DNA of 64,000 bases, from sequence record PX393108.1; one strand, written 5' to 3'. The notes beneath the pieces are model-generated. The model did no database searches, had not been told where the DNA came from, and saw only the letters and a program-made list of their open reading frames with translations. Of the stretch, positions 1 to 38,896 are shown in pieces. Each line of letters opens with the position of its first letter. Within the stretch, counting starts at the first letter, position 1. Both the position numbers and the translations under genes were made by a program. This DNA is from a phage.

Positions 1-1491
1 ATTTTCAATATTATGACGTAAAGTTTTAAAGGTAACTTCTTGTCCACGGTAAAGTGTAGTTCCCGGAGGAAGAACTGATCCTTTGGCGAATGCAGAATCC
101 AGCGTCTCGATGTGTTTAATAGCTCGTTCCATGTATTCTTCACGGGTAGAATCTGGTTTACCCAAGAGGAACGAGTTCATTTCAACATATGAATCTGCAC
201 AATAATCTTCGATTACATCAGACTCAGCCTGAGTCAGTCCTTTTGGAGTTACTTCGGTGCTTGCGTATTCATATGCCTGAGCAGCAGATTCATTAATCAA
301 TTTATAAATGCCATTCATGACAAATTGAATAATAGCTACCTTTTCGTCTGGCGTGGCTTTAGAACCTTTAACTAAATCATTGATAATTTTCTTAATAACA
401 TCAAAGCTATTAGAAATATTAATGTCAGCGAGATCGCTTAAAATTTTATCGGTTTTATAATCAAAGAATTCTTTATTCTTTAAATATTCTTGAGAACCTT
501 GATATGTTATATCGCTCTGCAGCTTGATAGATGGATCACGTAAACGTGCATGGGCCAATGCAATATGATTTCGGAAGCTTTCTAGTTCATAATCATTAGA
601 TTTAAAACGAGAAGCACTTCTCATACCACCGATAGCTCCTTTGCCGAAGTTTGAACCAATCTGAATAACGCCAGAGTTCATTGGTCCTTCTGCTTTATAT
701 ACCGGAACTTTAGATTCAAACTCTTGATATTTTTTAGCGGCGAAGCTATCACCCTGAAGTGAAGCATCGACAGTAGAATATTGAGCTTGTGCTGCTAATC
801 GACGACTAATTTTAGTTTTCTGAATAACAGCTTGATCCGTACGCTTATCATTTTCTAGAGCAATAGAAGCGGCAACAGCAACAGCTTTAGGAACAGCATT
901 ACCTGTTTTAACGTCTACATAAACATCACCAACCTTTGATTCAACTTTTGTGAATAACTCAGTTGAAATAGGAGGTACACCTGGAATGTCTTCTAAATTG
1001 GCATTTTTACGGTAAACCATAATATATGCATACTTTTTATCGTAATCCCAGATTTCCTTTAAAAGAACATATCGACCTGCTCCTTTAGTACGTACTAAAC
1101 GGTCAGCAATAACTTGCATTTGACGAGCTGCACCGTTTGTTTTACTTTTTAGTACGCGGAATAGGCATGCGTCAATTTTATACTGTTTCATTGTTTGAAG
1201 AGCAGTATCAAAAACCGCATTAATGACACCAATTGGATTTCCACCCAAGTTTTTAAGTTTAACGAGCGATAGTTTCTCATTGACACCTATCATTACGATA
1301 TGCATCATTTTATCGCCTGGCTTAACGTTTTTATTTGTATCACCGCCAGAGGTGTATGTACAAAATCTAAATCCAGGAAGCACACTTTCTTCACCGGCTT
1401 GAATAGCAAAAATTTGAGGTATTTTATGCTTAGGATTTAAGTTAACAACCGGGGCCGAAGCGCCGTCAAATAATTCTGTAATAAGTTCCAT
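1..1491 (-). CDS. Alt-like ADP-ribosyltransferase paralogue; C-terminus runs off the window start
   Basis: Open minus-strand frame from ATG 1489-1491 to position 1 (absent from ORF track, no stop in window). N-terminus MELITELFD and long stretches align by eye with the adjacent alt product; DNA 1000-1490 resembles 3100-3590. LYRGQ Arg motif at window edge; SD AAGGA upstream. Confidence 0.7.
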   Translation of the reverse strand, partial: MELITELFDGASAPVVNLNPKHKIPQIFAIQAGEESVLPGFRFCTYTSGGDTNKNVKPGDKMMHIVMIGVNEKLSLVKLKNLGGNPIGVINAVFDTALQTMKQYKIDACLFRVLKSKTNGAARQMQVIADRLVRTKGAGRYVLLKEIWDYDKKYAYIMVYRKNANLEDIPGVPPISTELFTKVESKVGDVYVDVKTGNAVPKAVAVAASIALENDKRTDQAVIQKTKISRRLAAQAQYSTVDASLQGDSFAAKKYQEFESKVPVYKAEGPMNSGVIQIGSNFGKGAIGGMRSASRFKSNDYELESFRNHIALAHARLRDPSIKLQSDITYQGSQEYLKNKEFFDYKTDKILSDLADINISNSFDVIKKIINDLVKGSKATPDEKVAIIQFVMNGIYKLINESAAQAYEYASTEVTPKGLTQAESDVIEDYCADSYVEMNSFLLGKPDSTREEYMERAIKHIETLDSAFAKGSVLPPGTTLYRGQEVTFKTLRHNIEN

Positions 1492-1494
1492 GAT

Positions 1495-3588
1495 TTATCC
1501 TTGAACGAACTTGTAAGGTATGTTTGCAATATCTATGCAAGATGCAATAATTCCAAGAGATGATTCTACTTTTTGTTTAACATTTGATGAAACAAATGAT
1601 GCAAAGTCAACTCTGTCTCCTATTTCAATATCACCTGTCATTGCAACTACTTCACCAGTTTCCATTAGACGGTCACCGTCATAAATTACTGATTCGGTGA
1701 GTTCTTCCGTAGTCATAACTTCAGCTTGAATGAGTTTTGTATTATTAGATGTTGTTCCGTCATTATTAGAAGCATCAGTTATTTTATTAACTTTGACCAT
1801 CAATCCTCGTGGTAGAATAACTTCAGCTTCTGTTGCTATTCCGAGACTTCCTGGATATACAACATTAACTTTATGAGCTCCATCAATTGCCCATCCTATT
1901 TGAACTTTAACGTATTCAGGATTTTCTTTATACGCTCTTATTTCGCTTGGATTAATAGTTATTCCTTCTTCATTTTTATCAACTGTCAATTCATTACGAG
2001 CTTCTGGTTCTAAAAGACCAATACCAGCATGCGTAATTCCAAAACGCCCAAAAATGATAGGAGTTAAAGAAGTAGATACAAAATTTCTGAAATAGAACAC
2101 TTTATTTTTAACTAGCGCTTCGTATATAGGAGCAGTCATACTTTGAGCACGATAAACTGTAATGCCTTCTGGTATACGGTCACCGTTTTCAAAAGCTGAA
2201 TCTAAGTTATTTATAGCAGATTCAATTTCTTTTTCACTCATTACATCATATCGTTCTGGATTGTAGCGTCCTAAAAGAAGATTATTGATGTCAGTATATC
2301 CTGAACCACAATACTCTCTAATGCCGCGCTTTTGTGATGGAGTATATTTAGAACCATCACGGGCAATAGTAATATCAATCATTGGACCTGCACCAATTCC
2401 AGAAAAGCTATAAATCATTCTTTTGAGGAATTTAGTTTTTGCTGCGTTCCAGGAATTTTTAGTCATTTCTTCCCAGACTTCATCTGGCTGTCCTTTACGT
2501 GTTTTATTATGTTTATCAAGCCATTTATCTTTGTATTCTTCAAAGAATTTATTAACAGCTGCTGCGTATTTCTCTAAACATTTTATTGAAGTAGTTGGTT
2601 CATTTTTAATCGCATTAAGAATTACATCTTTAATTTTTTCAGAAACTTCATTAACCTCACTTTTTGAAAAGAATTTATAATCATAGTGAAGTTCATCTGC
2701 GGTTCCTTCGGCAATAATTTTTGCTGCCTTAGTTTTAGAAGCCAATGAATTAATTCCAAGTTTCATTTCTTCTGCTTCGGGAATTAAAGGAGCAGTAGCA
2801 GGTTTATTGAAATTAGCTGCGGTAGATTCATACTTCTGGAATAATTCACTTTCAAATCTAGAAGATTCTAATGATTGACTTTGCGCAATTGCTCTACGGG
2901 AAATTTTAACTTTAACGATTACAGCTTGGTCAGAACGCTTATCATTTTCTTGTGCAATAGATGCTGCAATTGCCTCATTTTTAGTTACTTGAGCTCCAGT
3001 ATCTTTATTGATATAAACATCGCCGACTTTCGATTCAACTTTAGTAAAGAGCTCGGTACTAATTTCCGGAACTCCTGGAATGTCTTCTAGTGATACATTT
3101 TTGCGATGTATAAGAATATATGCATACTTTTTATCGTAATCCCAGAGTTCCTTAAGAAGGACGTATCTGCCACCTGAACGACTACGGATAAGTCTATCAG
3201 CAATAAGTTGAATTTGACGAGCTTGACCAGCAGTTTTAGACTTAAGAATACGGAGCATACAGGCATCAATTTTATACTGACGCATCGTCTGCATCGCAAC
3301 AGTAAAAACTGAATTGATGTAATTAATTGGGCTTGGACCAAGACCTTTTAATTTAGCAATTGAACCTTTAGCAGTTAATGTAAAAGGAACAATATGCATC
3401 ATTTTATCGCCCATCTTTAAATCGCGATTAGTATCACCTCCAGATGTATAGGTACATAAACGAAAGCCTGGTTGTTCAATTGCGTCATCAACATGAACTG
3501 AAAAAATTTGTGGTATTTTCTTCTTTGGATTTAAGTTTGTAATCGGAAGAGTAGTATCTTCGTCAAATAATTCTGTAATGAGTTCCAT
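1495..3588 (-). CDS. alt: Alt, capsid-packaged ADP-ribosyltransferase
   Basis: ~697 aa directly downstream of the gene 30 region as in T4. ART-like R/S/E motifs (VYRAQ, STS, EAEV). Second ATG chosen because SD GAGAGGA abuts the first. TATAAATA late promoter upstream. Confidence 0.85.
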   Translation of the reverse strand: MELITELFDEDTTLPITNLNPKKKIPQIFSVHVDDAIEQPGFRLCTYTSGGDTNRDLKMGDKMMHIVPFTLTAKGSIAKLKGLGPSPINYINSVFTVAMQTMRQYKIDACMLRILKSKTAGQARQIQLIADRLIRSRSGGRYVLLKELWDYDKKYAYILIHRKNVSLEDIPGVPEISTELFTKVESKVGDVYINKDTGAQVTKNEAIAASIAQENDKRSDQAVIVKVKISRRAIAQSQSLESSRFESELFQKYESTAANFNKPATAPLIPEAEEMKLGINSLASKTKAAKIIAEGTADELHYDYKFFSKSEVNEVSEKIKDVILNAIKNEPTTSIKCLEKYAAAVNKFFEEYKDKWLDKHNKTRKGQPDEVWEEMTKNSWNAAKTKFLKRMIYSFSGIGAGPMIDITIARDGSKYTPSQKRGIREYCGSGYTDINNLLLGRYNPERYDVMSEKEIESAINNLDSAFENGDRIPEGITVYRAQSMTAPIYEALVKNKVFYFRNFVSTSLTPIIFGRFGITHAGIGLLEPEARNELTVDKNEEGITINPSEIRAYKENPEYVKVQIGWAIDGAHKVNVVYPGSLGIATEAEVILPRGLMVKVNKITDASNNDGTTSNNTKLIQAEVMTTEELTESVIYDGDRLMETGEVVAMTGDIEIGDRVDFASFVSSNVKQKVESSLGIIASCIDIANIPYKFVQG

Positions 3589-3612
3589 CATATCCTCTCT
3601 AGTGTTTATTCT

Positions 3613-3620
3613 ATTTATAA
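3613..3620 (-). promoter_or_regulatory. T4-type late promoter (TATAAATA) for alt
   Basis: Reverse complement of tatttata sits ~20 nt upstream of the alt start. Confidence 0.6.
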
Positions 3621-3624
3621 AATT

Positions 3625-3642
3625 AAAGGCCCGAAGGCCTTT
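3625..3642 (-). terminator. UUCG-tetraloop hairpin (AAAGGCC-UUCG-GGCCUUU)
   Basis: Perfect 7-bp inverted repeat with a 4-nt loop, followed in transcript orientation by a U-rich tract; lies between the small ORF and the alt promoter. Confidence 0.5.
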
Positions 3643-3829
3643 AATAATCTATTGGTAAGAGAGTACGATATATTTCAAACTTTGGACCTTTTTCATAGGC
3701 ATCAAATGTTTCTGTGAATTTATTATAAGCATATGCATCTATAAATTCAATCATAATTTGTGATACAGAAGTAGAAACATCTCCACCTTCTTTTTGAGCA
3801 ACGACAATTGTTTCTAAGTAAGCTTTCAT
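3641..3829 (-). CDS. hypothetical small protein (62 aa)
   Basis: ORF track; start overlaps the gene 30 stop (ATGA), suggesting translational coupling. Confidence 0.5.
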   Translation of the reverse strand: MKAYLETIVVAQKEGGDVSTSVSQIMIEFIDAYAYNKFTETFDAYEKGPKFEIYRTLLPIDY

Positions 3830-5289
3830 AGACCAGTTACCTCATGAAAATCACCAAATACATCCTCGAATGTATTAGCTTTAGTTTTATCTTCACGTAA
3901 ACGAATCGCAATTGGAAGAAATAATTTTACGTAATCAGTGCGGCCATCAGATTTTAGCCAACCGTTGCATTCGCACTCTAGAATTTTTCCAATATAATAA
4001 TTTTGGTTTTCCATAATGCGAGTACGGTCAAGTTCATGCGATTTTACACCGGCTTTATCTTTTAAGCCTGAACCAGCATTTACTTTAATTTTTCCACATT
4101 CTGATTCAAGAATAAATCCACCCGCTTTAGTAGGGTCTTTACGGTGAGGATAAATTCCTACAATTTTTAAATCAACATCAATTACTTCTTTAAATTTATA
4201 GAGATTTTTTGAACGAGCATTTTCCCACAATCCATCGATATTTTTGAGAATAATACCTTCAAGACCTTGGTCAATATATTTTTTATAAATTACCTTAGCT
4301 TCATCTAGGTTATTTACTACCTGGTTTTCAATTAAAATTACTTTATCATAACCTGATGTCATTTGTTCTAGTTTAGAAAAACGTACATCATATTTCAAAC
4401 GAAATGCAGGAAGACCGTATATTTCTACCAACGGGACATAATCCCAGACCTGAAACTTCATGCATTGAGCTTCTTTTTCAGAAATGGTTCCCTTTAAAGA
4501 TTTATTGGCGATGCCATTAGATGCAGTACGTGATTCAGCTACTTCGGCGAATTCTTTAGCTTTACTAATTTCAGGATAAGCATCAAAAAGAAAATCTAGG
4601 CCTTCTGGTTCCTTTTTAACTTGCTCATGGTATACCAATTCGCCATCAATTAACACACCTTCTGGATGAATCTGGCGGGCTTCAGCAGTCATTTTGATTA
4701 ACTCTTCCTTAAGAAGATCTAATCCTAGATATTCATTACCAGCTCGTGATAAAAGACGAACATCATCTAATTCATCGCCTCGGACTTCAGCAAAACACCG
4801 AGCTCCATCTGCTTTTAACTGCGCAAAGGCTGGAAACTTGATATTCTTACTAATGCCTTTTTCATCATAAGAACTTGCCAGCATTTGAGGTTGTTCAGGA
4901 ATTAAACCTGGCCAAACTTTATTTGCAATAGATACTGAAGCACCGCATTCAAGGTCTCGCATCATAACTCGACGCAAAACTTCAACATCATCCTTTTTAC
5001 CATCGGTGATATATCCAATTAATTCCTCAATTGCCGCATTTCCAGTCAATTTCCGAGTAGCTAACGTGAATTCAATGAAGTCAAGCATATCGGTAATAGT
5101 CAGCATTCCAAAACTCTGGGTAGCAATACCAGGTTTAGGCCATTTCTTGATATAATACTGTAACCCACGAGAATAAGTTAGACGATATACTCGTTTAAGC
5201 AATTCATTATCTTTATTCTTTTCAAGAATTGCTTGCTTCTGCTTAGTTGATCCAATAGATGCTATTTCATTCAGAATTTTAAGAATCAT
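3826..5289 (-). CDS. 30: ATP-dependent DNA ligase gp30
   Basis: 487 aa; MILKILNEIASIGSTKQKQAILEKNK... matches T4 DNA ligase as recalled; adenylation motif KADG (FAQLKADGARC). Confidence 0.97.
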   Translation of the reverse strand: MILKILNEIASIGSTKQKQAILEKNKDNELLKRVYRLTYSRGLQYYIKKWPKPGIATQSFGMLTITDMLDFIEFTLATRKLTGNAAIEELIGYITDGKKDDVEVLRRVMMRDLECGASVSIANKVWPGLIPEQPQMLASSYDEKGISKNIKFPAFAQLKADGARCFAEVRGDELDDVRLLSRAGNEYLGLDLLKEELIKMTAEARQIHPEGVLIDGELVYHEQVKKEPEGLDFLFDAYPEISKAKEFAEVAESRTASNGIANKSLKGTISEKEAQCMKFQVWDYVPLVEIYGLPAFRLKYDVRFSKLEQMTSGYDKVILIENQVVNNLDEAKVIYKKYIDQGLEGIILKNIDGLWENARSKNLYKFKEVIDVDLKIVGIYPHRKDPTKAGGFILESECGKIKVNAGSGLKDKAGVKSHELDRTRIMENQNYYIGKILECECNGWLKSDGRTDYVKLFLPIAIRLREDKTKANTFEDVFGDFHEVTGL

Positions 5290-5555
5290 TGTTCATCCTT
5301 CAGAGTTTGATTTACAGCTCTATTATAAATCAATTCATCATTAAGCTCAGTCAAAGACTTATGATATGTAGTTCTAACTTTATTTCCTTGCATCCAGTGC
5401 TTGATATAAATGAAACCTTGCTCTACGCATTTTTTAAAAATTCGTTCGTCTTTTTGAGCTCGGAATTCTGGATTGCATCTAAAAAATTGATTTACGTGAC
5501 CGTAATCACGCGTAGTATTACCTTCATTTTCATAAATAGTGTGAACGACAAACAT
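5286..5555 (-). CDS. hypothetical protein (30.1 position)
   Basis: ORF track, 89 aa; ATGA overlap with the gene 30 start region; synteny. Confidence 0.6.
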   Translation of the reverse strand: MFVVHTIYENEGNTTRDYGHVNQFFRCNPEFRAQKDERIFKKCVEQGFIYIKHWMQGNKVRTTYHKSLTELNDELIYNRAVNQTLKDEQ

Positions 5556-27670: not shown

Positions 27671-27678
27671 TATAAATA
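27671..27678 (+). promoter_or_regulatory. T4-type late promoter (TATAAATA) for gene 34
   Basis: Exact TATAAATA about 35 nt upstream of the gene 34 ATG, followed by SD AGGAG. Confidence 0.7.
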
Positions 27679-27712: not shown

Positions 27713-30700
27713 ATGGCCGAGATTAAAAGAAAGTTCAGAGCAGAAGATGGTCTGGACGCAGGTGGCGATAAAATAATCAACGTAGCTTTAGCTGATCGTA
27801 CCGTAGGAACTGACGGTGTTAACGTTGATTACCTAATTCAAGAAAACACAGTTCAACAATACGATCCAACTCGTGGATATTTAAAAGATTTTGTAATCAT
27901 TTATGATAACCGCTTTTGGGCTGCTATAAATGATATTCCAAAACCGGCAGGAGCTTTTAATAGCGGGCGCTGGAGAGCATTACGTACTGATGCTAACTGG
28001 ATTACAGTTTCATCTGGTTCATATCAATTAAAATCCGGTGAAGCTATTTCGGTTAACACTGCAGCTGGTAATGATATTACATTTACTTTACCATCTACTC
28101 CAATTGACGGTGATACTATCGTTCTCCAAGACATTGGAGGAAAACCTGGAGTTAACCAAGTTTTAATTGTAGCTCCAGTGCAAAGTATTGTAAACTTCAG
28201 AGGTCAGCAAGTACGTTCAGTACTAATGACTCATCCAAAATCACAGTTGGTTTTAATTTTTAGTAATCGTCTGTGGCAAATGTATGTTGCTGATTATAGT
28301 AGAGAAGCTGTAATTGCAACACCAGCGAATACTTATCAAGCGCAATCTAACGATTTTATCGTACGTAGATTTACTTCTGCTGCACCGATTAATATTAAAC
28401 TTCCGAGATTTGCCAATCACGGCGATATTATTAATTTCGTCGATTTGGATAAATTAAATCCGCTTTATCATACAATTGTTACAACATATGATGAAACCAC
28501 TTCAGTACAAGAAGTTGGAACTCATTCTATTGAAGGCCGTACATCTATTGACGGTTTCTTGATGTATGACGATAATGAGAAATTATGGAGATTATTTGAC
28601 GGGGACAGTAAAGCACGTTTACGTATCATAACAACTAATTCAAACATTCGTCCAAATGAAGAAGTTATGGTATTTGGTGCGAATAATGGAACAACTCAAA
28701 CGATTGAGCTTCAGCTTCCAACTAATATTTCTGTTGGTGATACTGTTAAAATTTCCATGAATTACATGAGAAAAGGACAAACAGTTAAAATCAAAGCTGC
28801 CGGTGAAGATAAAATTGCTTCTTCAGTTCAATTGCTGCAATTCCCAAAACGTTCAGAATATCCGCCTGAAGCTGAATGGGTAACTGTTCAAGAATTAGTT
28901 TTTAACGGTGAAACTAATTATGTTCCAGTTTTACAACTTGCTTATATAGAAGATTCTGACGGAAAATACTGGGTTGTACAGCAAAACGTTCCAACTGTAG
29001 AAAGAGTTGATTCTTTGAATGATTCTACTAGAGCAAGATTAGGCGTAATTGCTTTAGCTACACAAGCTCAAGCTAATGCCGATTTAGAAAATTCTCCACA
29101 AAAAGAATTAGCAATTACTCCAGAAACATTAGCTAACCGTACTGCTACAGAAACTCGTAGAGGTATCGCAAGAATAGCAACAACTGCTCAAGTGAATCAG
29201 AACACCACATTCTCTTTTGCTGATGATATTATCATCACTCCTAAAAAGCTGAATGAAAGAACTGCTACAGAAACTCGTAGAGGTGTTGCTGAAATTGCTA
29301 CGCAACAGGAAACTAATGCAGGTACTGATGATACTACAATCATTACTCCTAAAAAGCTTCAAGCTCGACAAGGTTCTGAATCATTATCAGGTATTGTAAC
29401 CTTTGTATCTACCGCAGGAGCTACTCCAGCTTCTAGTCGTGAATTAAATGGTACAAATGTTTATAATAAAAACACTAATAATTTAGTTGTTTCGCCTAAA
29501 GCTCTGGATCAGTATAAAGCTACTCCAACACAGCAAGGTGCAGTAATTTTAGCAGTTGAAAGTGAAGTAATTGCTGGACAAAGCCAAGAAGGATGGGCAA
29601 ATGCGGTTGTAACACCAGAAACGTTACATAAAAAGACATCAACTGATGGAAGAATTGGTTTAATTGAAATTGCTACGCAAAGTGAAGTTAATACAGGAAC
29701 TGATTATACTCGTGCAGTCACTCCTAAAACTTTAAATGACCGTATAGCAACTGAAAGTTTAAGTGGTATAGCTGAAATTGCTACACAAGTTGAATTCGAC
29801 GCAGGCGTCGACGATACTCGTATCTCTACACCATTAAAAATTAAAACTAGATTTAATAGTACTGATCGTACTTCTGTTGTTGCTCTATCTGGATTAGTTG
29901 AATCAGGAACTCTCTGGGACCATTATACCCTTAATATTCTTGAAGCAAATGAGACACAGCGTGGTACACTTCGTGTAGCTACACAAGTTGAAGCTGCTGC
30001 AGGAACATTAGATAATGTTTTAATAACTCCTAAAAAGCTTTTAGGTACTAAATCTACTGAAGCACAGGAAGGTGTTATTAAAGTTGCAACTCAGTCTGAA
30101 ACTGTGACTGGAACGTCAGCAAATACTGCTGTATCTCCAAAAAATTTAAAATGGATTGTGCAGAGTGAACCTACTTGGGCAGCTACTACTGCGATAAGAG
30201 GCTTTGTTAAAACTTCATCTGGTTCAATTACATTCGTTGGTAATGATACAGTTGGTTCAACACAGTCGTTAGAATTATACGAGAAAAATAGCTATGCAGT
30301 ATCACCATATGAATTAAACCGTGTATTAGCAAATTATTTACCGTTAAAAGCAAAAGCTGCTGATACAAATTTATTGGATGGTCTAGATTCATCTCAGTTC
30401 ATTCGTAGGGATATTGCACAGACGGTTAATGGTTCACTAACCTTAACCCAACAAACGAATCTGAGTGCCCCTCTTGTATCATCTAGTACTGCTACGTTTG
30501 GTGGTTCAGTTTCGGCAAATAGTACATTAACTATTTCTAATACTGGAACGGCAACTCGTCTGATTTTTGAGAAAGGACCTCAAACTGGAACTAACCCAGC
30601 ACAGACGATGACTATCAGAGTTTGGGGAAATCAGTTCGGTGGCGGTTCAGATACAACACGTTCTACTGTATTTGAAGTTGGTGATGAAACGTCTAATCAC

Positions 30701-31582
30701 TTTTATTCTCAACGTAATAAAGCTGGGAATATAACGTTTAGTATCAATGGTACTGTAATGCCAATAAATGTTAATGCTTCGGGTTCTTTGAATGCGAACG
30801 GCGTTGCAACATTTGGTAGTTCAGTTACAGCCAATGGTGAATTCATCAGCAAGTCTGCAAATGCTTTCAGAGCAATAAATGGCGACTATGGATTCTTTAT
30901 TCGTAATGATGCTGCTAACACCTATTTTATGCTTACTGCATCGGGTGATCAGACTGGCGGATTTAATGGATTACGTCCTTTAGCTATTAACAATGCATCC
31001 GGTCAAGTAACGATTGGTGAAAGCTTAATCATTGCCAAAGGTGCTACTATAAATTCAGGTGGTTTAACTGTTAACTCGAGAATTCGTTCTCAGGGTACTA
31101 AAACCGCTGATTTATACACCCGTGCACCGACATCTGATACTGTAGGATTCTGGTCAATTGACATTAATGATTCAGCTACTTATAACCAGTTCCCGGGTTA
31201 TTTTGAAATGGTTGAAAAAACTAATGAAGTGACTGGACTTCCATACTTAGAACGTGGCGAAGAGGTTAAATCTCCTGGTACGTTGACTCAGTTTGGTAAC
31301 ACACTTGATTCGCTTTACCAAGATTGGATTACTTATCCAACGACTCCAGAAGCACGTACCACTCGCTGGACCCGTACATGGCAGAAAACCAAAAACTCTT
31401 GGTCGAGTTTTGTTCAGGTATTTGATGGCGGTAACCCTCCTCAGCCGTCTGATATCGGTGCTTTGCCATCTGATAATGCTACAATGGGGAATCTTACTAT
31501 TCGTGATTTCTTACGAATTGGTAATGTTCGCATTATTCCTGACCCAGTGAATAAATCTGTTAAATTTGAATGGATTGAATAA
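27713..31582 (+). CDS. 34: gp34 long tail fibre proximal subunit
   Basis: 1289 aa, same length as T4 gp34; repeated fibre motifs (TATETRRG..IATQ, ITPKKL); first gene of the fibre operon. Confidence 0.97.
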   Translation: MAEIKRKFRAEDGLDAGGDKIINVALADRTVGTDGVNVDYLIQENTVQQYDPTRGYLKDFVIIYDNRFWAAINDIPKPAGAFNSGRWRALRTDANWITVSSGSYQLKSGEAISVNTAAGNDITFTLPSTPIDGDTIVLQDIGGKPGVNQVLIVAPVQSIVNFRGQQVRSVLMTHPKSQLVLIFSNRLWQMYVADYSREAVIATPANTYQAQSNDFIVRRFTSAAPINIKLPRFANHGDIINFVDLDKLNPLYHTIVTTYDETTSVQEVGTHSIEGRTSIDGFLMYDDNEKLWRLFDGDSKARLRIITTNSNIRPNEEVMVFGANNGTTQTIELQLPTNISVGDTVKISMNYMRKGQTVKIKAAGEDKIASSVQLLQFPKRSEYPPEAEWVTVQELVFNGETNYVPVLQLAYIEDSDGKYWVVQQNVPTVERVDSLNDSTRARLGVIALATQAQANADLENSPQKELAITPETLANRTATETRRGIARIATTAQVNQNTTFSFADDIIITPKKLNERTATETRRGVAEIATQQETNAGTDDTTIITPKKLQARQGSESLSGIVTFVSTAGATPASSRELNGTNVYNKNTNNLVVSPKALDQYKATPTQQGAVILAVESEVIAGQSQEGWANAVVTPETLHKKTSTDGRIGLIEIATQSEVNTGTDYTRAVTPKTLNDRIATESLSGIAEIATQVEFDAGVDDTRISTPLKIKTRFNSTDRTSVVALSGLVESGTLWDHYTLNILEANETQRGTLRVATQVEAAAGTLDNVLITPKKLLGTKSTEAQEGVIKVATQSETVTGTSANTAVSPKNLKWIVQSEPTWAATTAIRGFVKTSSGSITFVGNDTVGSTQSLELYEKNSYAVSPYELNRVLANYLPLKAKAADTNLLDGLDSSQFIRRDIAQTVNGSLTLTQQTNLSAPLVSSSTATFGGSVSANSTLTISNTGTATRLIFEKGPQTGTNPAQTMTIRVWGNQFGGGSDTTRSTVFEVGDETSNHFYSQRNKAGNITFSINGTVMPINVNASGSLNANGVATFGSSVTANGEFISKSANAFRAINGDYGFFIRNDAANTYFMLTASGDQTGGFNGLRPLAINNASGQVTIGESLIIAKGATINSGGLTVNSRIRSQGTKTADLYTRAPTSDTVGFWSIDINDSATYNQFPGYFEMVEKTNEVTGLPYLERGEEVKSPGTLTQFGNTLDSLYQDWITYPTTPEARTTRWTRTWQKTKNSWSSFVQVFDGGNPPQPSDIGALPSDNATMGNLTIRDFLRIGNVRIIPDPVNKSVKFEWIE
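29141..29284 (+). repeat. direct repeats inside gene 34 (24-bp exact copies 120 bp apart)
   Basis: actgctacagaaactcgtagaggt at 29141-29164 and 29261-29284; related cctaaaaagct units recur downstream. Confidence 0.6.
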
Positions 31583-31590
31583 GAGGTATT

Positions 31591-32706
31591 ATGGAAAAAT
31601 TTATGGCAGAGTTTGGACAAGGATATGTCCAAACGCCATTTTTATCGGAAAGTAATTCAGTAAGATACAAAATAAGTATAGCGGGTTCTTGCCCGCTTTC
31701 TACTGCAGGACCATACGTTAAATTTCAAGATAATCCTGTTGGAAGTCAAACATTTAGCGCAGGACTTCATTTAAGAGTTTTTGACCCTTCCACCGGAGCA
31801 TTAGTTGATAGTAAGTCATATGCTTTTTCAACTTCAAATGATACTACATCAGCTGCTTTTGTTAGTTTCATGAATTCTTTGACGAATAACAGACTTGTTG
31901 CTATATTAACTAGCGGAAAGGTTAATTTTCCTCCTGAAGTAGTATCTTGGTTAAGAACCGCAGGAACGTCTGCTTTTCCATCTGATTCTATATTGTCAAG
32001 ATTTGACGTATCATATGCTGCTTTTTATACTTCTTCTAAAAGAGCTATTGCATTAGAGCATGTTAAACTAAGTAATAGAAAAAGCACAGATGATTATCAA
32101 ACTATTTTAGATGTTGTATTTGACAGTTTAGAAGACGTTGGAGCTACGGGATTTCCTAAAAGAACATACGAAAGCGTTGAGCAATTTATGTCAGCAGTCG
32201 GTGGAACTAATAACGAAATTGCGCGTCTACCAACTTCAGCTGCTATAAGTAAACTCTCTGATTATAATTTAATTCCTGGCGATGTTCTTTATCTTAAAGC
32301 TCAGTTATATGCCGATGCCGATTTACTCGCGCTTGGAACTACAAATATATCTATCCGTTTTTATAATGCATCGAATGGATATATTTCTTCAACACAAGCT
32401 GAGTTTACCGGGCAAGCTGGGTCTTGGGAATTAAAAGAAGATTATGTGGTTGTTCCAGAAAACGCTGTCGGATTTACGATATATGCACAAAGAACAGCAC
32501 AAGCTGGTCAAGGTGGCATGAGAAATTTAAGCTTTTCTGAAGTGTCAAGAAATGGAGGTATTTCGAAACCTGCTGAATTTGGCGTCAATGGTATTCGTGT
32601 TAATTATATCTGTGAATCTGCTTCACCTCCGGATATAATGGTACTTCCTACGCAAGCATCGTCTAAAACTGGTAAAGTGTTTGGGCAAGAATTTAGAGAA
32701 GTTTAA
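31591..32706 (+). CDS. 35: gp35 long tail fibre hinge protein
   Basis: 371 aa; follows gene 34 with an 8-nt spacer. Confidence 0.9.
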   Translation: MEKFMAEFGQGYVQTPFLSESNSVRYKISIAGSCPLSTAGPYVKFQDNPVGSQTFSAGLHLRVFDPSTGALVDSKSYAFSTSNDTTSAAFVSFMNSLTNNRLVAILTSGKVNFPPEVVSWLRTAGTSAFPSDSILSRFDVSYAAFYTSSKRAIALEHVKLSNRKSTDDYQTILDVVFDSLEDVGATGFPKRTYESVEQFMSAVGGTNNEIARLPTSAAISKLSDYNLIPGDVLYLKAQLYADADLLALGTTNISIRFYNASNGYISSTQAEFTGQAGSWELKEDYVVVPENAVGFTIYAQRTAQAGQGGMRNLSFSEVSRNGGISKPAEFGVNGIRVNYICESASPPDIMVLPTQASSKTGKVFGQEFREV

Positions 32707-32711
32707 ATTGA

Positions 32712-32729
32712 GGGAGCCTTCGGGTTCCC
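32712..32729 (+). terminator. UUCG hairpin terminator after gene 35
   Basis: GGGAGCC-UUCG-GGUUCCC followed by UUUUUCUUU. Confidence 0.55.
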
Positions 32730-32737
32730 TTTTTCTT

Positions 32738-32745
32738 TATAAATA
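32738..32745 (+). promoter_or_regulatory. T4-type late promoter (TATAAATA) for genes 36-37-38
   Basis: Exact TATAAATA 24 nt upstream of the gene 36 ATG. Confidence 0.65.
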
Positions 32746-32768: not shown

Positions 32769-33428
32769 ATGGCTGATTTAAAAGTAGGTTCAACAACCGG
32801 AGGCTCTGTCATTTGGCATCAAGGAAATTTTCCATTGAATCCAGCCGGTGACGATGTACTCTATAAATCATTTAAAATATATTCAGAATATAATAAACCA
32901 CAAGCTGCTGATAACGATTTCGTTTCTAAAGCTAATGGCGGTATTTATCTAAACCGAGTTACCTTTAACAAGGGTATTCAAGTCCCGGGAGCTGGCAATG
33001 GTCTGACCGGGATGTTTGTTGGGCCAGGTGATGGAGCAACTTATGATAATGTTAACCTTGATATAATATCTTGGTATGGTATAGGATTTAAATCATCTCA
33101 AGGAACAGGACCTAGGACAATTGTTTTTAACGTTCGTGACGGTGAAATTTCGGCCCGTGGTAATATAAATTCACAGCGTCAGGTGCGAGCCGAAGCCGCA
33201 GCGCCCATTGCCGCAAATGATCTTACTAGAAAAGACTATGTTGATGGAGCAATAAATACTGTTACGGCAAATGCGAACTCTAGAGTGTTACGATCTGGCG
33301 ACACTATGACGGGTAACTTAACCGCACCAAACTTTTTTTCACAGAATCCTGCATCTCAACCTTCACACGTTCCACGATTTGACCAAATCGTAATTAAGGA
33401 TTCTGTTCAAGATTTCGGCTATTATTAA
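32769..33428 (+). CDS. 36: gp36 long tail fibre distal connector
   Basis: 219 aa; position between 35 and 37. Confidence 0.9.
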   Translation: MADLKVGSTTGGSVIWHQGNFPLNPAGDDVLYKSFKIYSEYNKPQAADNDFVSKANGGIYLNRVTFNKGIQVPGAGNGLTGMFVGPGDGATYDNVNLDIISWYGIGFKSSQGTGPRTIVFNVRDGEISARGNINSQRQVRAEAAAPIAANDLTRKDYVDGAINTVTANANSRVLRSGDTMTGNLTAPNFFSQNPASQPSHVPRFDQIVIKDSVQDFGYY

Positions 33429-33436
33429 GAGGACTT

Positions 33437-36400
33437 ATGGCTACTTTAAAACAAATACAATTTAAAAGAAGCAAAACCGCAGGTGCACGTCCTGCTGCTT
33501 CAGTATTAGCCGAAGGTGAATTGGCTATAAACTTAAAAGATAGAACAATTTTTACTAAAGATGATTTAGGAAATATCATTGACTTAAGCATTTCTGCTGG
33601 CGGTAGTATCAGTGGAAATATCACTCAAACTGGCGATTATTTACAAAATGGAACATATAATCTTAATGGAAACCAGTTTGTTTATGCAGGAAAATATATT
33701 GAATTTTTACCTAAAACTGCTGGTAATGGTGCTTGGGCAAACCAACATAAAAATAAAGCTCCTATCTTTACAGATTTAAGTTCAACTACTTCTACTTCAG
33801 AATACCATCCGCTAATTAAGCAGCGTTACAAAGATGGGACTTTTTCTGTTGGTACGTTAGTAAATGAAGGAAGTTTTAAAATTCATTATATTAATGAATC
33901 GGGAACTTCAAAATATTGGACATTTCGTAGAGATGGTGGATTTGTTGTTGATACAGGAAGTTTAACAGTAACAGATGGAAATATTTCTGCTTCTGGTAAT
34001 ATTAATTCGGCTACTGGGATAGTTTCTGCTCCGCGCGTCAATACAAAAAATATTAACCTGAGTTCTAAAACCTTTATACCGAATAATGACACGGGTTATG
34101 ACATTGTTTCTTTACCTACTTGGATTTATAATCCACCAGCAGATGGTTCTGACCGTGATACAAACGGATTGAACTACATGCGTAAAATGCGGGCTTCAAA
34201 TACTTCTAGCATTTTCCATGAAATAGTTGACTGTCGTTCGGGAAAACCACAAGAAATTTCTTGGTGGACCGGCGTAGGACCTTCATCTTTCCAGTGGGCG
34301 TTTGATACCTCTGGACGTATTACCGCAGGTAAATCTATTTCAGTAGGTCTTCCTGATAGTGGTACAAATGGTCGTTATCCTTTAGATTCTGCAATTTCTA
34401 TTGGTATTGCGATTGGCGATAACGATACCGGTATTAAATGGGTCCGCGATGGCGTTTATGACCTGATGGCTAACGGTATTTCATCCGCTACCATTTTGAA
34501 TAATGGTATTAATAGTACTAAAAAATTGATGGTTGGTTATAGTCGAGATTCCGGTTCTACTTGGGATTTCCCAAATAACAACCAAGCAATGTTTACTGCG
34601 CGTACAGATATTGATGGTAATAATAACGGCGATGGTCAGACTCATATTGGTTATAGCAGCAATTCTAAAATGTATCACTATTTCCGTGGCACGGGTCGTA
34701 TGTCTGTTAGCATGGGCGATGGACTTCTTGTTGAGCCAGGTATTTTAGACATTAAAACTGGGTCTAATAGAGTTGCTATTAGAGCAGATGGTACATTTGA
34801 CTCAACCCAACGTATTTCAATGCGTACTGGATTATTTTTATCAGGTGATGATAATACCAATGCTTTGTCATTTAAAGCGCCTACAGGTGTTGACGGGACA
34901 AAAACCATTAACTGGGATGCAGGCACTCGTAATGGTCAGAATAAAAATACTGTAACCATTAAAGCGTGGGGTAACTCATTTAACTCAACTCCAGGTAATA
35001 GAGAAACTGTATTCGAAGTTTCAGATTCACAAGGTTATTATTTCTACGCTCAACGTACTAATCCTGCGTCAGGTCAAACAGTAGGTCCTATTAATTTTAA
35101 ATTTAATGGTACTGTAGAAACTGGACATATTGTCGGGCTCGGAAATATAAGTGCCTCTGGTACAGGTTCTTTTGGTGGCAATGTTACTATGTCTAACGGT
35201 TTGTTTGTCCAAGGTGGTTCTTCTATTACTGGACAAGTTAAAATCGGCGGAACTGTTGATGCATTAAGAATTTGGAATGCTGAATACGGTGCTATTTTCC
35301 GTCGTTCAGAAGCATCTTTGCATATTATCCCGACTCCTAAAGATGCCGGTGAAAGTGGTGGAATAAGTAATCTTCGTCCGCTTAGTATCAGCCTTAATAA
35401 TGGTATGGTACAAATGCGTCATTCTGTCACGTTAGGCGATGACAGCAGAGGTGGCAATATGATTACTGTAGACAACGATAATAAACTTGTTGTTATTACT
35501 AGTCATAGTCGCATTTCTCCTAATTACCGTATGCAGTTAGGTCAGGCTGCGTACATTGATGCAGAATGTACTGATGCTGTTCGCCCTGCTGGTGCAGGTT
35601 CATTCGCTTCACAAAATAATGAAAACGTTCGTGCTCCGTTCTACATGAATATAGATAGAACCGATACAAGCACTTATGTTCCTATTTTGAAGCAACGTTA
35701 TGTCCAAGGTAATGGTTGCTATTCATTAGGAACTTTAATTAATAATGGTAACTTCAGGGTTCATTATCATGGTGGCGGAGATAACGGTTCTTCAGGACCA
35801 CAAACAGCTGATTTTGGATGGGAATTTATTAAAAACGGTGATTTTATTTCACCTCGCGATTTAATAGCAGGCAAAGTCAGATTTGATAGAACTGGTAATA
35901 TTACCGGTGGTTCTGGTAATTTTGCTAACTTAGATACGACTTTAAACCGTAAAGTAACTACCGGCTGGATTAACTATTCTTCTGTGAGTGGTTGGTATAA
36001 ATTGGCAACAGTAACTATGCCTCAAGGTGTAGCTACGGTCCAATTTAAAATAACAGGCGGTTCCGGTTTTAACGTTGGTATTTTCAAACAAGCAACAATT
36101 AATGAAATTGTATTACGCTCGGGTAATAATACACCTAAAGGAATTAATGGTGTTTTATGGCAGCGTGAAACAGATGCTATTAAAGATATTGCGTATATTA
36201 ATACCTCAGGCGATGAGTATGATGTTTATATTAGTTGTGGCACTTATTTAAATAGACTTACCATAGAATATAGCACTTCAGAAAATGCTTCTGTGGTAGT
36301 TCATGGATTATATGGGCCTACGCAATCGCCGGTAGAAGAGCTTCCTGTAGATATTGTTAAAGGTCGTGTTTTTAAACTTCTTAATAATAGCTCAGGCGTT

Positions 36401-37393
36401 TTTGACGCGGGTAGTTCTAATATTTCTACAAATGCAACTTTTGTGGCAAATACTACTATAGGATACCGTCACAAATCTAACGGCGACGAAAGTGGCTCTG
36501 CAGCTGCTCTGTTTTATAATGATGGTACTACGTTCCACATATTATTAACAGATAAAAATACCGATACTGATAAAACTAAAGCCTCGGGTTCTTATAATAG
36601 CTTGAGACCTTTTTCTATCAATATCGCTTCAGGTAAAGTAACTATTTCAAACTCTATGAGCGTTTCTGGGGTATCAGAGTTTTGGAATGGCCTTAACATC
36701 AAAAATAATGGAAGCATTAACTTTGATAAGTCTGGTGCTAACCCGAGAAATATGAGAATATTTCATGCTGGCGATGCTTCTCGCGGTAACCGCATTGAAA
36801 TTGCAGATGAAACTAACTATATTGCTTACTTTGAAAAAACTCCAGGTGGAGCTAACCGCTTTGTAGTAAATAATGCTACTGTAGCTGGTGTTAACCAAAT
36901 GAATTCATTTGGTATTAATATCAATAACGCACTTGGTGGAAATAGTATAGCATTTGGTGATAATGATACTGGAATTAAACAATCCGGTGACGGAATTCTT
37001 GATATCATTACTAACGCCGCACGCCGAATGAGATTCCAATCGGGTGACACTTATTCTGACATGAATATAAATGCACCAAACGTTTATATTCGTTCTGATA
37101 TTCGTTTGAAATCTAATTTCAGACCTATTGAAAATGCTCTTGAAAAGGTTGAACAGCTTGATGGTTTAATCTATGATAAAGCTGACTATATAGGCGGTGA
37201 AATTGTTCAGACTGAAGCGGGTATTGTGGCTCAAACACTGCAAGATGTTTTACCAGAAGCAGTTCGTGAAGTTGAAGATATTAAGGGTAATAAAATACTC
37301 ACTGTTTCTTCTCAATCCCAGATTGCTCTTCTAGTTGAAGCTGTGAAAACACTTTCTGCTCGTGTAAAAGAACTTGAATATAAACTTATGTAA
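33437..37393 (+). CDS. 37: gp37 long tail fibre distal subunit with C-terminal intramolecular-chaperone-like domain
   Basis: 1318 aa; N-terminus MATLKQIQFKRSK... matches recalled T4 gp37; C-terminal ~100 aa begin with SDIRLK (residue ~1220, nt 37094), resembling the autoproteolytic motif of endosialidase/T5-type chaperone domains. Confidence 0.95.
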   Translation: MATLKQIQFKRSKTAGARPAASVLAEGELAINLKDRTIFTKDDLGNIIDLSISAGGSISGNITQTGDYLQNGTYNLNGNQFVYAGKYIEFLPKTAGNGAWANQHKNKAPIFTDLSSTTSTSEYHPLIKQRYKDGTFSVGTLVNEGSFKIHYINESGTSKYWTFRRDGGFVVDTGSLTVTDGNISASGNINSATGIVSAPRVNTKNINLSSKTFIPNNDTGYDIVSLPTWIYNPPADGSDRDTNGLNYMRKMRASNTSSIFHEIVDCRSGKPQEISWWTGVGPSSFQWAFDTSGRITAGKSISVGLPDSGTNGRYPLDSAISIGIAIGDNDTGIKWVRDGVYDLMANGISSATILNNGINSTKKLMVGYSRDSGSTWDFPNNNQAMFTARTDIDGNNNGDGQTHIGYSSNSKMYHYFRGTGRMSVSMGDGLLVEPGILDIKTGSNRVAIRADGTFDSTQRISMRTGLFLSGDDNTNALSFKAPTGVDGTKTINWDAGTRNGQNKNTVTIKAWGNSFNSTPGNRETVFEVSDSQGYYFYAQRTNPASGQTVGPINFKFNGTVETGHIVGLGNISASGTGSFGGNVTMSNGLFVQGGSSITGQVKIGGTVDALRIWNAEYGAIFRRSEASLHIIPTPKDAGESGGISNLRPLSISLNNGMVQMRHSVTLGDDSRGGNMITVDNDNKLVVITSHSRISPNYRMQLGQAAYIDAECTDAVRPAGAGSFASQNNENVRAPFYMNIDRTDTSTYVPILKQRYVQGNGCYSLGTLINNGNFRVHYHGGGDNGSSGPQTADFGWEFIKNGDFISPRDLIAGKVRFDRTGNITGGSGNFANLDTTLNRKVTTGWINYSSVSGWYKLATVTMPQGVATVQFKITGGSGFNVGIFKQATINEIVLRSGNNTPKGINGVLWQRETDAIKDIAYINTSGDEYDVYISCGTYLNRLTIEYSTSENASVVVHGLYGPTQSPVEELPVDIVKGRVFKLLNNSSGVFDAGSSNISTNATFVANTTIGYRHKSNGDESGSAAALFYNDGTTFHILLTDKNTDTDKTKASGSYNSLRPFSINIASGKVTISNSMSVSGVSEFWNGLNIKNNGSINFDKSGANPRNMRIFHAGDASRGNRIEIADETNYIAYFEKTPGGANRFVVNNATVAGVNQMNSFGININNALGGNSIAFGDNDTGIKQSGDGILDIITNAARRMRFQSGDTYSDMNINAPNVYIRSDIRLKSNFRPIENALEKVEQLDGLIYDKADYIGGEIVQTEAGIVAQTLQDVLPEAVREVEDIKGNKILTVSSQSQIALLVEAVKTLSARVKELEYKLM

Positions 37394-37394
37394 A

Positions 37395-37412
37395 AGAGGG
37401 CTTCGGCCCTCT
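37395..37412 (+). other. UUCG hairpin between genes 37 and 38
   Basis: AGAGGGC-UUCG-GCCCUCU immediately before the gene 38 SD (AAGGA). Confidence 0.5.
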
Positions 37413-37423
37413 AAGGATTTTTA

Positions 37424-38209
37424 ATGGCAATTGTAGGTGTTCCTGGCTGGATTGGTGAATCTGCCGTGAATGAAACTGGACAACGTTGGATGGATGCTGC
37501 AATGAAAGCAGTTCGTGTTTCAGTTCCCGGTTGGATGAGCTCAATGGCTGGACAATCTAAAGAAGTATATTATAGCATTGGTGCTAGCAATTCTTATAAT
37601 AAAGACACACTAATAAATTGGATAAAAGCCCAAGGAAGTACTCCTGTTGTTATTACAATTACAGGCAATATCGTTTCTTCATCGACAGGTCAACCATGCT
37701 TAGATTTTCCTAGCTCATTAACTAATGCGTACGTGACACTTAATATCAATTCAGGTGTGCATGTTTGGGGTCGTGGAGGGAATGGTGGAAATAACTCTGC
37801 TGGTGGAGCAGGAGGAACTGCAATAAATAACGGAATTGGAACTAGATTACGTATTAACAACAACGGTGTTATCGCAGGAGGCGGTGGCGGCGGTGGCGGC
37901 GGATACTACTCTCCTTTTTCACAAATGAAATTGACTTTTGGCGGTGGCGGCGGTCGTCCATTTGGTGCTGCTGGCGGCTCTGCTAATATGGAACAAGGTG
38001 CTACCGCTGGTACTATTTCTGCACCCGGTAAAGGGTCTGTTAACGGTATCTATAATGGCGGGAATGGTGGTGATGCCGGAGCTGCAGGAGGTAAATGTAA
38101 TATTCGCGGCCAAGGATCAGAATATAACGGCGGCGCAGCAGGTAAAGCTGTTACTGGTAATGCTCCAACTTGGACTAAAGTTGGTACAATATACGGTTCA
38201 AGAGTATAA
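37424..38209 (+). CDS. 38: gp38 receptor-recognising adhesin (T2-type, glycine-rich motifs)
   Basis: 261 aa; several poly-Gly tracts (GGGGGGGGGYY, FGGGGGRPFG, NGGNGGDAGAAGG) separated by variable segments. Confidence 0.9.
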   Translation: MAIVGVPGWIGESAVNETGQRWMDAAMKAVRVSVPGWMSSMAGQSKEVYYSIGASNSYNKDTLINWIKAQGSTPVVITITGNIVSSSTGQPCLDFPSSLTNAYVTLNINSGVHVWGRGGNGGNNSAGGAGGTAINNGIGTRLRINNNGVIAGGGGGGGGGYYSPFSQMKLTFGGGGGRPFGAAGGSANMEQGATAGTISAPGKGSVNGIYNGGNGGDAGAAGGKCNIRGQGSEYNGGAAGKAVTGNAPTWTKVGTIYGSRV

Positions 38210-38239: not shown

Positions 38240-38896
38240 ATGGCAGCACCTAGAATATCATTTTCGCCCTCTGATATTCTGTTGGGTGTTCTAGATCGCT
38301 TGTTCAAAGATAATGCTACCGGGAAAGTTCTTGCTTCCCGGGTAGCTGTCGTAATTCTTTTGTTTATAATGGCGATTGTTTGGTATAGGGGAGATAGTTT
38401 CTTTGAGTACTATAAGCAATCAAAGTATGAAACATACAGTGAAATTATTGAAAAGGAAAGAAATGCACGCTTTGAATCTGTCGCCCTGGAACAACTCCAG
38501 ATAGTTCATATATCATCTGAGGCAGACTTTAGTGCGGTGTATTCTTTCCGCCCTAAAAACTTAAACTATTTTGTTGATATTATAGCATATGAAGGAAGAC
38601 TACCTTCAACAATAACCGAAAAATCACTTGGAGGATATCCTGTTGATAAAACTATGGATGAATATACCGTTCATTTAAATGGACGTCATTATTATTCCAA
38701 CTCAAAATTTGCTTTTTTACCGACTAAAAAGCCTACTCCCGAAATAAATTACATGTACAGTTGTCCATATTTTAATTTGGATAATATCTATGCTGGAACA
38801 ATAACCATGTACTGGTATAGAAATGATCATATAAGTAATGACCGCCTTGAATCAATATGTTCTCAGGCGGCCAGAATATTAGGAAGGGCTAAATAA
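38240..38896 (+). CDS. t: holin
   Basis: 218 aa; MAAPRISFSPSDIL...VAVVILLFIMAIVWYRGDSFFEYYK matches recalled T4 holin T with one TM helix. Confidence 0.95.
   Translation: MAAPRISFSPSDILLGVLDRLFKDNATGKVLASRVAVVILLFIMAIVWYRGDSFFEYYKQSKYETYSEIIEKERNARFESVALEQLQIVHISSEADFSAVYSFRPKNLNYFVDIIAYEGRLPSTITEKSLGGYPVDKTMDEYTVHLNGRHYYSNSKFAFLPTKKPTPEINYMYSCPYFNLDNIYAGTITMYWYRNDHISNDRLESICSQAARILGRAK

Follow-up and report, generated by a model that had tools for sequence, protein, structure and literature searches.

Long tail fibres of the T2, T6 and S16 type end in a two-protein tip, in which a cleaved gp37 is capped by a gp38 adhesin; most T-even phages have this architecture, and work published between 1986 and 2026 has described it. 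Among tips of this gp37-gp38 type, only that of the Salmonella phage S16 has a solved structure (PDB 6F45). In S16, the last 113 residues of gp37 are auto-cleaved at DLNVS^SDRRIKK, exposing the gp38 docking surface (PMC7917993), and three conserved tryptophans of gp38 plug into pockets on the base of the gp37 trimer (PMC6851490). The aligned site in the Yersinia T4-like phages (fPS) reads DVYIR^SDGRLKI (PMC7917993), and T2 gp37 is proteolytically processed according to Drexler et al. 1986, as summarised in PMC3157838. In the endosialidase endoNF, the cut falls immediately N-terminal of the conserved Ser911 and Lys916 is the general base, while in a eukaryotic homologue the equivalent Ser and Lys are both needed for cleavage (PMC3828593). 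T4 (NC_000866) differs: its gp37 ends in its own receptor-binding needle without an S74 tail, and its gp38 is an unrelated 183-aa chaperone.

Here, we analyzed genes 37 and 38 in a 64,000-nucleotide stretch of the phage sequence record PX393108.1, hereafter the window. The two genes are adjacent open reading frames (ORFs), with a gap of 30 nt between the stop of gene 37 and the start of gene 38:

33437..37393, + strand: gene 37, long tail fibre distal subunit, 1318-aa precursor, 142.0 kDa (ORF; PHROG 1699)
37424..38209, + strand: gene 38, receptor-recognising adhesin, 261 aa, 25.7 kDa (ORF; Pfam, PHROG and PDB matches)

They lie in a fibre cluster with the T-even order g34-g35-g36-g37-g38-t, as judged from the ORF list and Pfam, and the minus-strand ORFs within g37 and g38 are all of 85 aa or less. 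Downstream of the tip genes, positions 38240-62000 share 97.5% identity with Escherichia phage ECO07P2 and 95-97% with many further Tequatrovirus genomes, hence the window belongs to a T4-like coliphage genome. The locus very probably encodes the T2/T6/S16-type long tail fibre tip of a Tequatrovirus coliphage. This reading draws on the observed order of the genes, the protein families, the conserved motifs, the similarity of folds, and the identity of the receptor-binding part to adhesins whose receptor has been measured. The tip is an already known system, to which the window adds just one further recombinant gp37 allele and a specific prediction of the receptor. The same interpretation had been reached in the original prediction, which was made from the letters of the window and is supported by the present analysis.

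The gp38 adhesin and its predicted receptor

The gene 38 product is a T2-type tail-fibre adhesin (GP38/Gp38_N), as confirmed by every sequence-level test. The Pfam family GP38 (PF05268) matched residues 47-261 over its entire profile (positions 1-218 of 218, E 2e-71), Gp38_N (PF21721) matched residues 1-42 (E 7e-18), and PHROG 2056 matched at 1.6e-104. Two solved adhesin structures were also recovered, namely S16 gp38 (6f45_D, residues 8-259, E 4.7e-49) and the receptor-binding domain of PP01 gp38 (9V85, residues 39-261, E 1.1e-32; PMC12892980). The gene follows immediately after a gene 37 whose product has a predicted cleavable tail, and the exact gp38 protein is present in a 15-billion-protein collection (two Logan contigs). 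Its two parts are as follows:

37424..37549, + strand: N-terminal attachment domain with Trp9, Trp22 and Trp37, gp38 residues 1-42 (Pfam Gp38_N)
37769..38158, + strand: glycine-rich motifs and variable segments (~161-172, 186-211 and 224-235), gp38 residues 116-245; predicted polyglycine-II sandwich bearing receptor-binding loops

In an alignment with T2 and T6 (alignment A1), all three tryptophans were invariant and lined up with those of S16. The glycine columns of the same alignment were invariant as well, while the segments between them varied. Glycine makes up 23% of gp38 overall and 32% from residue 120 on, and is concentrated in five runs (118-131, 152-160 with nine glycines, 173-177, 212-223 and 236-237). 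The pattern corresponds to the adhesin architecture of Trojet et al. and Lutz et al. (PMC12032242), in which glycine-rich motifs alternate with hypervariable segments, and bears out the earlier proposal of a 261-aa adhesin whose variable segments are separated by glycine motifs.

Next, we compared the variable segments with those of adhesins of known receptor, as the original prediction had suggested. T2 (AP018813), which uses FadL, shares 75% identity over the N-terminal 148 residues of gp38 but only 67% overall, and its variable segments are divergent. T6 (AP018814), the classic Tsx-binding phage, has the same architecture as this locus; its gp38 is only 64% identical overall, but its variable segments are close to those seen here (for example, YYSPFPQMRLTF versus YYSPFSQMKLTF). 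The closest adhesins are far more similar: about 20 sequenced phages have an adhesin with 98.9% identity to gp38. FriedrichMiescher (Bas39, MZ501066) and JK38 (MK962755) reach this identity, and both depend on Tsx experimentally: the primary receptor of Bas39 is given as Tsx in a BASEL supplementary table (PMC8594841), and that of JK38 as Tsx/Kdo by RB-TnSeq (bioRxiv 10.64898/2026.04.02.716166). Only K28R, S86Q and Q90V distinguish their adhesins from gp38 of the window, and the stretch with all glycine-rich and variable segments, residues 91-261, is 100% identical. Since this region is identical to adhesins of Tsx-dependent phages, the nucleoside channel Tsx of E. coli is most likely the receptor of this phage as well.

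The assignment of specificity to the loops of gp38, unlike in T4, agrees with a published exchange: in a T6-like phage, replacing gp38 from HVS2 onward suffices to switch the receptor from Tsx to OmpA. According to the same preprint, one loop substitution can switch OmpF to OmpW (bioRxiv 10.64898/2026.04.02.716166). Because single substitutions can have this effect, a similarity-based prediction of Tsx is safe here only by virtue of the identical loop region. The ease of switching also lends something to the reading that the receptor is not Tsx but OmpA, OmpF, OmpC, FadL or lipopolysaccharide (LPS), or that the gp37 shaft adds a second, glycan-type contact that shapes the host range. In the same direction, type 1 OmpA adhesins and Tsx adhesins lie close together in phylogeny (PMC12032242), porin-predictive k-mers are also found in Gp37, and the gp37 shaft of the window is a different mosaic from those of the Tsx reference phages, with a beta module that resembles tailspike domains. 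Over most of the gene, the gp37 shafts of Bas39 and JK38 are only 50-70% identical to this one at the nucleotide level, and Bas39 gp37 has 1260 aa. Nevertheless, gp38 residues 91-261 are identical in two phages with measured Tsx dependence, and K28R, S86Q and Q90V all fall outside the glycine-rich loop region. We therefore consider another receptor, or a second contact, unlikely.

The chaperone tail of gp37 and its predicted cleavage junction

The last ~100 residues of gp37 had been noted to start with SDIRLK, a motif expected at the junction of a chaperone domain. This motif occurs once in gp37, at residues 1220-1225, and 99 residues extend from Ser1220 to the end of the protein. The relevant features are:

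36884..37093, + strand: mature fibre tip, gp37 residues 1150-1219, ending in ...NAPNVYIR; predicted gp38 docking surface (alignment with the S16 tip, 6f45_A)
37091..37096, + strand: predicted scissile bond Arg1219-Ser1220, placed by alignment to the S16 and fPS sites
37094..37390, + strand: C-terminal intramolecular chaperone (Peptidase_S74/ICA domain), gp37 residues 1220-1318, 99 aa, 11.0 kDa
37094-37096 and 37109-37111: putative catalytic dyad, Ser1220 and Lys1225

Profile searches confirmed that the tail is a member of the Peptidase_S74/ICA chaperone family. Pfam Peptidase_S74 (PF13884, 'chaperone of endosialidase') matched gp37 residues 1220-1277 across all 58 profile positions (E 9.8e-14; bit score 51.8, cut-off 22), well outside what chance would give. 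When full-length gp37 was compared with the PDB by sequence, the sole match was the S16 long tail fibre tip (6f45_A, 3.7e-9), which spans the junction (SDRRIK in S16). With a profile of six T-even gp37 tips (alignment A2, 36737-37390), 6f45_A was recovered again (1.5e-12), together with the ICA domain of MyRF (7dc3_A, 3e-5) and a tail fibre (8jov, 7e-5). The same profile matched many chains of influenza haemagglutinin HA2 in the pre-cleavage region (E about 1e-3); we took these matches as probably due to chance or composition, since they concern one family only, arise from a six-sequence profile, and are absent with a single sequence. In a Foldseek search with the gp37 tip region, 6f45 chains A-C were the best matches with weak E-values. 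Overall, the tail was predicted to adopt the chaperone-domain fold, with fold evidence of moderate strength. The domain occupies the last 99 of the 1318 residues of the fibre subunit, and the 70 residues before it align with the beta-helical tip of S16 gp37.

The junction itself is highly conserved. A database search with gp37 residues 1150-1318 returned diverse metagenomic S74 proteins with the junction consensus SDIRLKxNIxPIENALEKV, and when 16 diverse S74 sequences were aligned, S71/D72 were nearly invariant and K76 was invariant. In gp37 of the window the junction reads NVYIR^SDIRLKS, and VYIR-SD-x-RLK is invariant across T2, T6, FriedrichMiescher (Bas39), JoYop and REP1. The spacing of Ser1220 and Lys1225 equals that of S911 and K916 in endoNF. 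The endoNF chaperone (PDB 3GW6) and the MyRF ICA domain (7DC3) differ from gp37 in their carriers, a sialidase tailspike and a eukaryotic transcription factor, respectively, and have only 10-20% sequence identity to the gp37 tail.

T2 is among the closest known counterparts. It has the same gene order and two-protein tip, a gp37 precursor of 1341 aa versus 1318 here, an identical cleavage motif (NVYIR|SDIRLKS), and a 99-aa tail in which 86 of 99 residues are identical. T6 differs more, with a gp37 of 994 aa and a 113-aa tail (43/99 identical). Both proteins of the S16 tip match those of the window by sequence, and S16 shares the Ser-Asp-x-Arg-[IL]-Lys junction, the three Trp prongs and the polyglycine sandwich; it differs in the residues before the cut (DLNVS versus NVYIR here), in the length of the tail (113 versus 99 residues) and in its host, Salmonella.

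By analogy with the homologous T2 and S16 proteins, we infer that the tail is released by autoproteolysis after trimerisation. In close homologues, cleavage, virion location and receptor are all established. gp37 would be synthesised as a 142-kDa precursor whose last 99 residues help three chains to fold into a trimeric beta-helical tip. Once the trimer has formed, Ser1220, activated by Lys1225, would attack the Arg1219-Ser1220 bond, yielding a mature chain of 131.0 kDa (residues 1-1219) and a released chaperone fragment of 11.0 kDa. Departure of the chaperone would expose the flat trimeric end (...NVYIR) of gp37, on which one gp38 is predicted to dock via its N-terminal domain and three conserved tryptophans, giving a putative 3:1 stoichiometry. 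The C-terminal part of gp38, a predicted polyglycine sandwich, would then present the variable loops to the outer-membrane receptor, predicted to be Tsx.

An S74-like tail might instead be degenerate and non-cleaving and be kept in the mature fibre, with gp38 binding elsewhere or not at all. Cleavage is a prediction here and, as noted above, the fold evidence for the tail is moderate, both of which leave some room for this reading. However, T2, T6 and relatives share both dyad residues and the flanking motif without change, and all are intact here. The tail has 87% identity to its T2 counterpart, for which the cited summary reports processing, and the S16 crystal entry can be aligned at this very site, with auto-cleavage reported there. 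A retained tail is thus very improbable. Least probable of all is that gp38 is a T4-like assembly chaperone, released after gp37 folding, with receptor binding left to gp37: 'distal long tail fiber assembly catalyst' and 'tail assembly protein' are labels on 84-99% identical proteins (for example in teqsoen, RB18 and vB_Eco_EL), but these are annotation carried over from T4, whose RefSeq note itself calls the T2-type 'gp38' an unrelated adhesin, while gp38 of the window matches the adhesin family and two solved adhesin structures strongly, and gp37 lacks the T4 needle domain, as its similarity to T4 ends at residue 836. A T4-type chaperone identity for gp38, raised by the database labels, was rejected as there was no detectable similarity to the T4 gp38 chaperone (BLASTP best E 21), and the T4 arrangement of the tip is excluded. 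We also noted that many records label T2-type gp38 'assembly catalyst', 'tail assembly protein' or 'hypothetical', terms that are either T4-derived or uninformative.

The mosaic gp37 shaft and its genomic setting

gp37 matched PHROG 1699 ('long tail fiber protein distal subunit') over its full length (E 0, residues 1-1318), and its shaft can be divided into segments of different closest sources:

gp37 ~1-600: closest source REP1, nucleotide identity 94-100% in most 150-nt bins (75% at residues 151-200)
gp37 ~700-800: closest source T4/T2, nucleotide identity 74-91% (T4 86-91%)
gp37 ~850-1318: closest source JoYop/REP1, nucleotide identity 88-99%
35153..35944, + strand: central shaft module, gp37 residues 573-836, near-identical to T4 gp37 (BLASTP; 150-nt bins at residues 701 and 751, 86-91% nucleotide identity)
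35945..36415, + strand: T2-type-specific all-beta module, gp37 residues 837-993, possibly a beta-sandwich knob

The original prediction held that gp37 shares the N-terminal and central regions of T4. This stands for the centre: T4 has the same gene positions, and gp37 residues 1-836 are homologous and align by BLASTP up to the start of the T4 needle domain. It was overstated for the N-terminal part, as identity over 1-836 is 52% overall, only residues ~573-836 are near-identical, and residues ~61-220 give no useful alignment with T4 and are T2-like. Against T2 gp37, identity is 56% over residues 1-1088 and 79% over 1154-1318, while residues ~1089-1153 are unrelated to the T2 sequence at the same place; in some bins the central shaft resembles T4 more than T2. 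Within the phage collection, no record was colinear with gp37 above 89% identity (the best being JoYop, 88-89%), and the exact gp37 protein was absent from the 15-billion-protein collection. By sequence comparison, the shaft combines REP1-like, T4/T2-like and JoYop/REP1-like segments in a new recombinant, the modules themselves being known from Tequatrovirus. Such modular exchange is the documented norm for long tail fibre genes (PMC3157838).

Pfam Gp34_trimer matched gp37 residues 519-651, and BLASTP found two gp34-like segments (493-667 and 984-1077). Just before the cleavage site (gp37 ~1165-1200, window ~36930-37040), the NALGGNSIAFGDNDTGIKQSGDGILD module has 45-65% identity to many prophage 'phage tail protein' entries from E. 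coli, Shigella and Salmonella, which lack the S74 tail and have different ends; this recurrence is consistent with an exchange of tail-fibre modules between T-even phages and prophages. In the JK38 record (978-5469), gene 37 is annotated as two overlapping coding sequences (978-3698 and 3685-5469), pointing to a possible frameshift or sequencing error in this entry.

The all-beta module (~837-993) is without a solved or Pfam-described relative, and a sequence search of the PDB with gp37 residues 830-1160 gave zero matches. A low-confidence model of the module resembles the beta-sandwich domains of polysaccharide-binding phage tailspikes. On the strength of this model, it is conceivable, albeit doubtful, that the module forms a second, lateral carbohydrate-binding site for LPS or O-antigen. 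If so, gp38 would not be the only determinant of host range in T2-type phages, and the mosaicism of the gp37 shaft would be adaptive rather than neutral.

The flanking genes and putative RNA signals of the cluster are listed below:

27671-27678: TATAAATA box, exact match, upstream of g34
27713-31582: g34
31591-32706: g35
32710-32731: GC-rich hairpin with UUCG tetraloop in the g35/g36 gap
32738..32745, + strand: TATAAATA box, exact match, 24 nt before gene 36; likely start of a g36-g37-g38-t late transcript
32769..33428, + strand: gene 36, small distal fibre subunit joining gp37 to the hinge, 219 aa (ORF; Pfam Phage_T4_gp36, E 2.6e-33)
37395..37412, + strand: GC-rich hairpin with UUCG tetraloop in the g37/g38 gap, followed by AAGGA and the gp38 ATG (minimum free energy -13.4 kcal/mol, z -1.85)
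38240..38896, + strand: gene t, holin, the downstream neighbour and end of the fibre cluster (Pfam Phage_holin_T, E 4.7e-117); 97.7% nucleotide-identical to T4 t

We take TATAAATA to be the consensus of the T4 late promoter. Across the whole window it occurs 8 times versus 9 expected by chance, so a function is argued for solely from the placement of the boxes before g36 and g34. No such box was found directly before g37, g38 or t, and box placement suggests that g36-g37-g38-t are co-transcribed. A T-rich stretch follows each of the UUCG hairpins, which may have a role in RNA stability or partial termination; the one in the g37/g38 gap was listed as terminator-like. In the related record vB_Eco_NR1, a terminator is annotated in the matching g37-g38 region. 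A scan of the window at Rfam gathering thresholds returned zero RNA families. A sigma-70 promoter scan of the locus found 27 candidates against 22 expected from shuffles, which is no enrichment, and is uninformative for late genes.

Implications for T2-type fibre tips

Publications already cover T2 gp37 processing, the role of gp38 as an adhesin, the mechanism of the S74 chaperone and the S16 tip structure. The practical value of the present analysis therefore lies in annotation. 'Assembly catalyst'-type database labels on T2-type gp38 proteins are wrongly carried over from T4, while Tsx can be predicted from sequence as the primary receptor. Two further predictions follow from the sequence: recombinant gp37 tips would have to be expressed with the 99-residue tail in order to fold, and the host range of this phage should be re-targetable by exchanging the C-terminal half of gp38.

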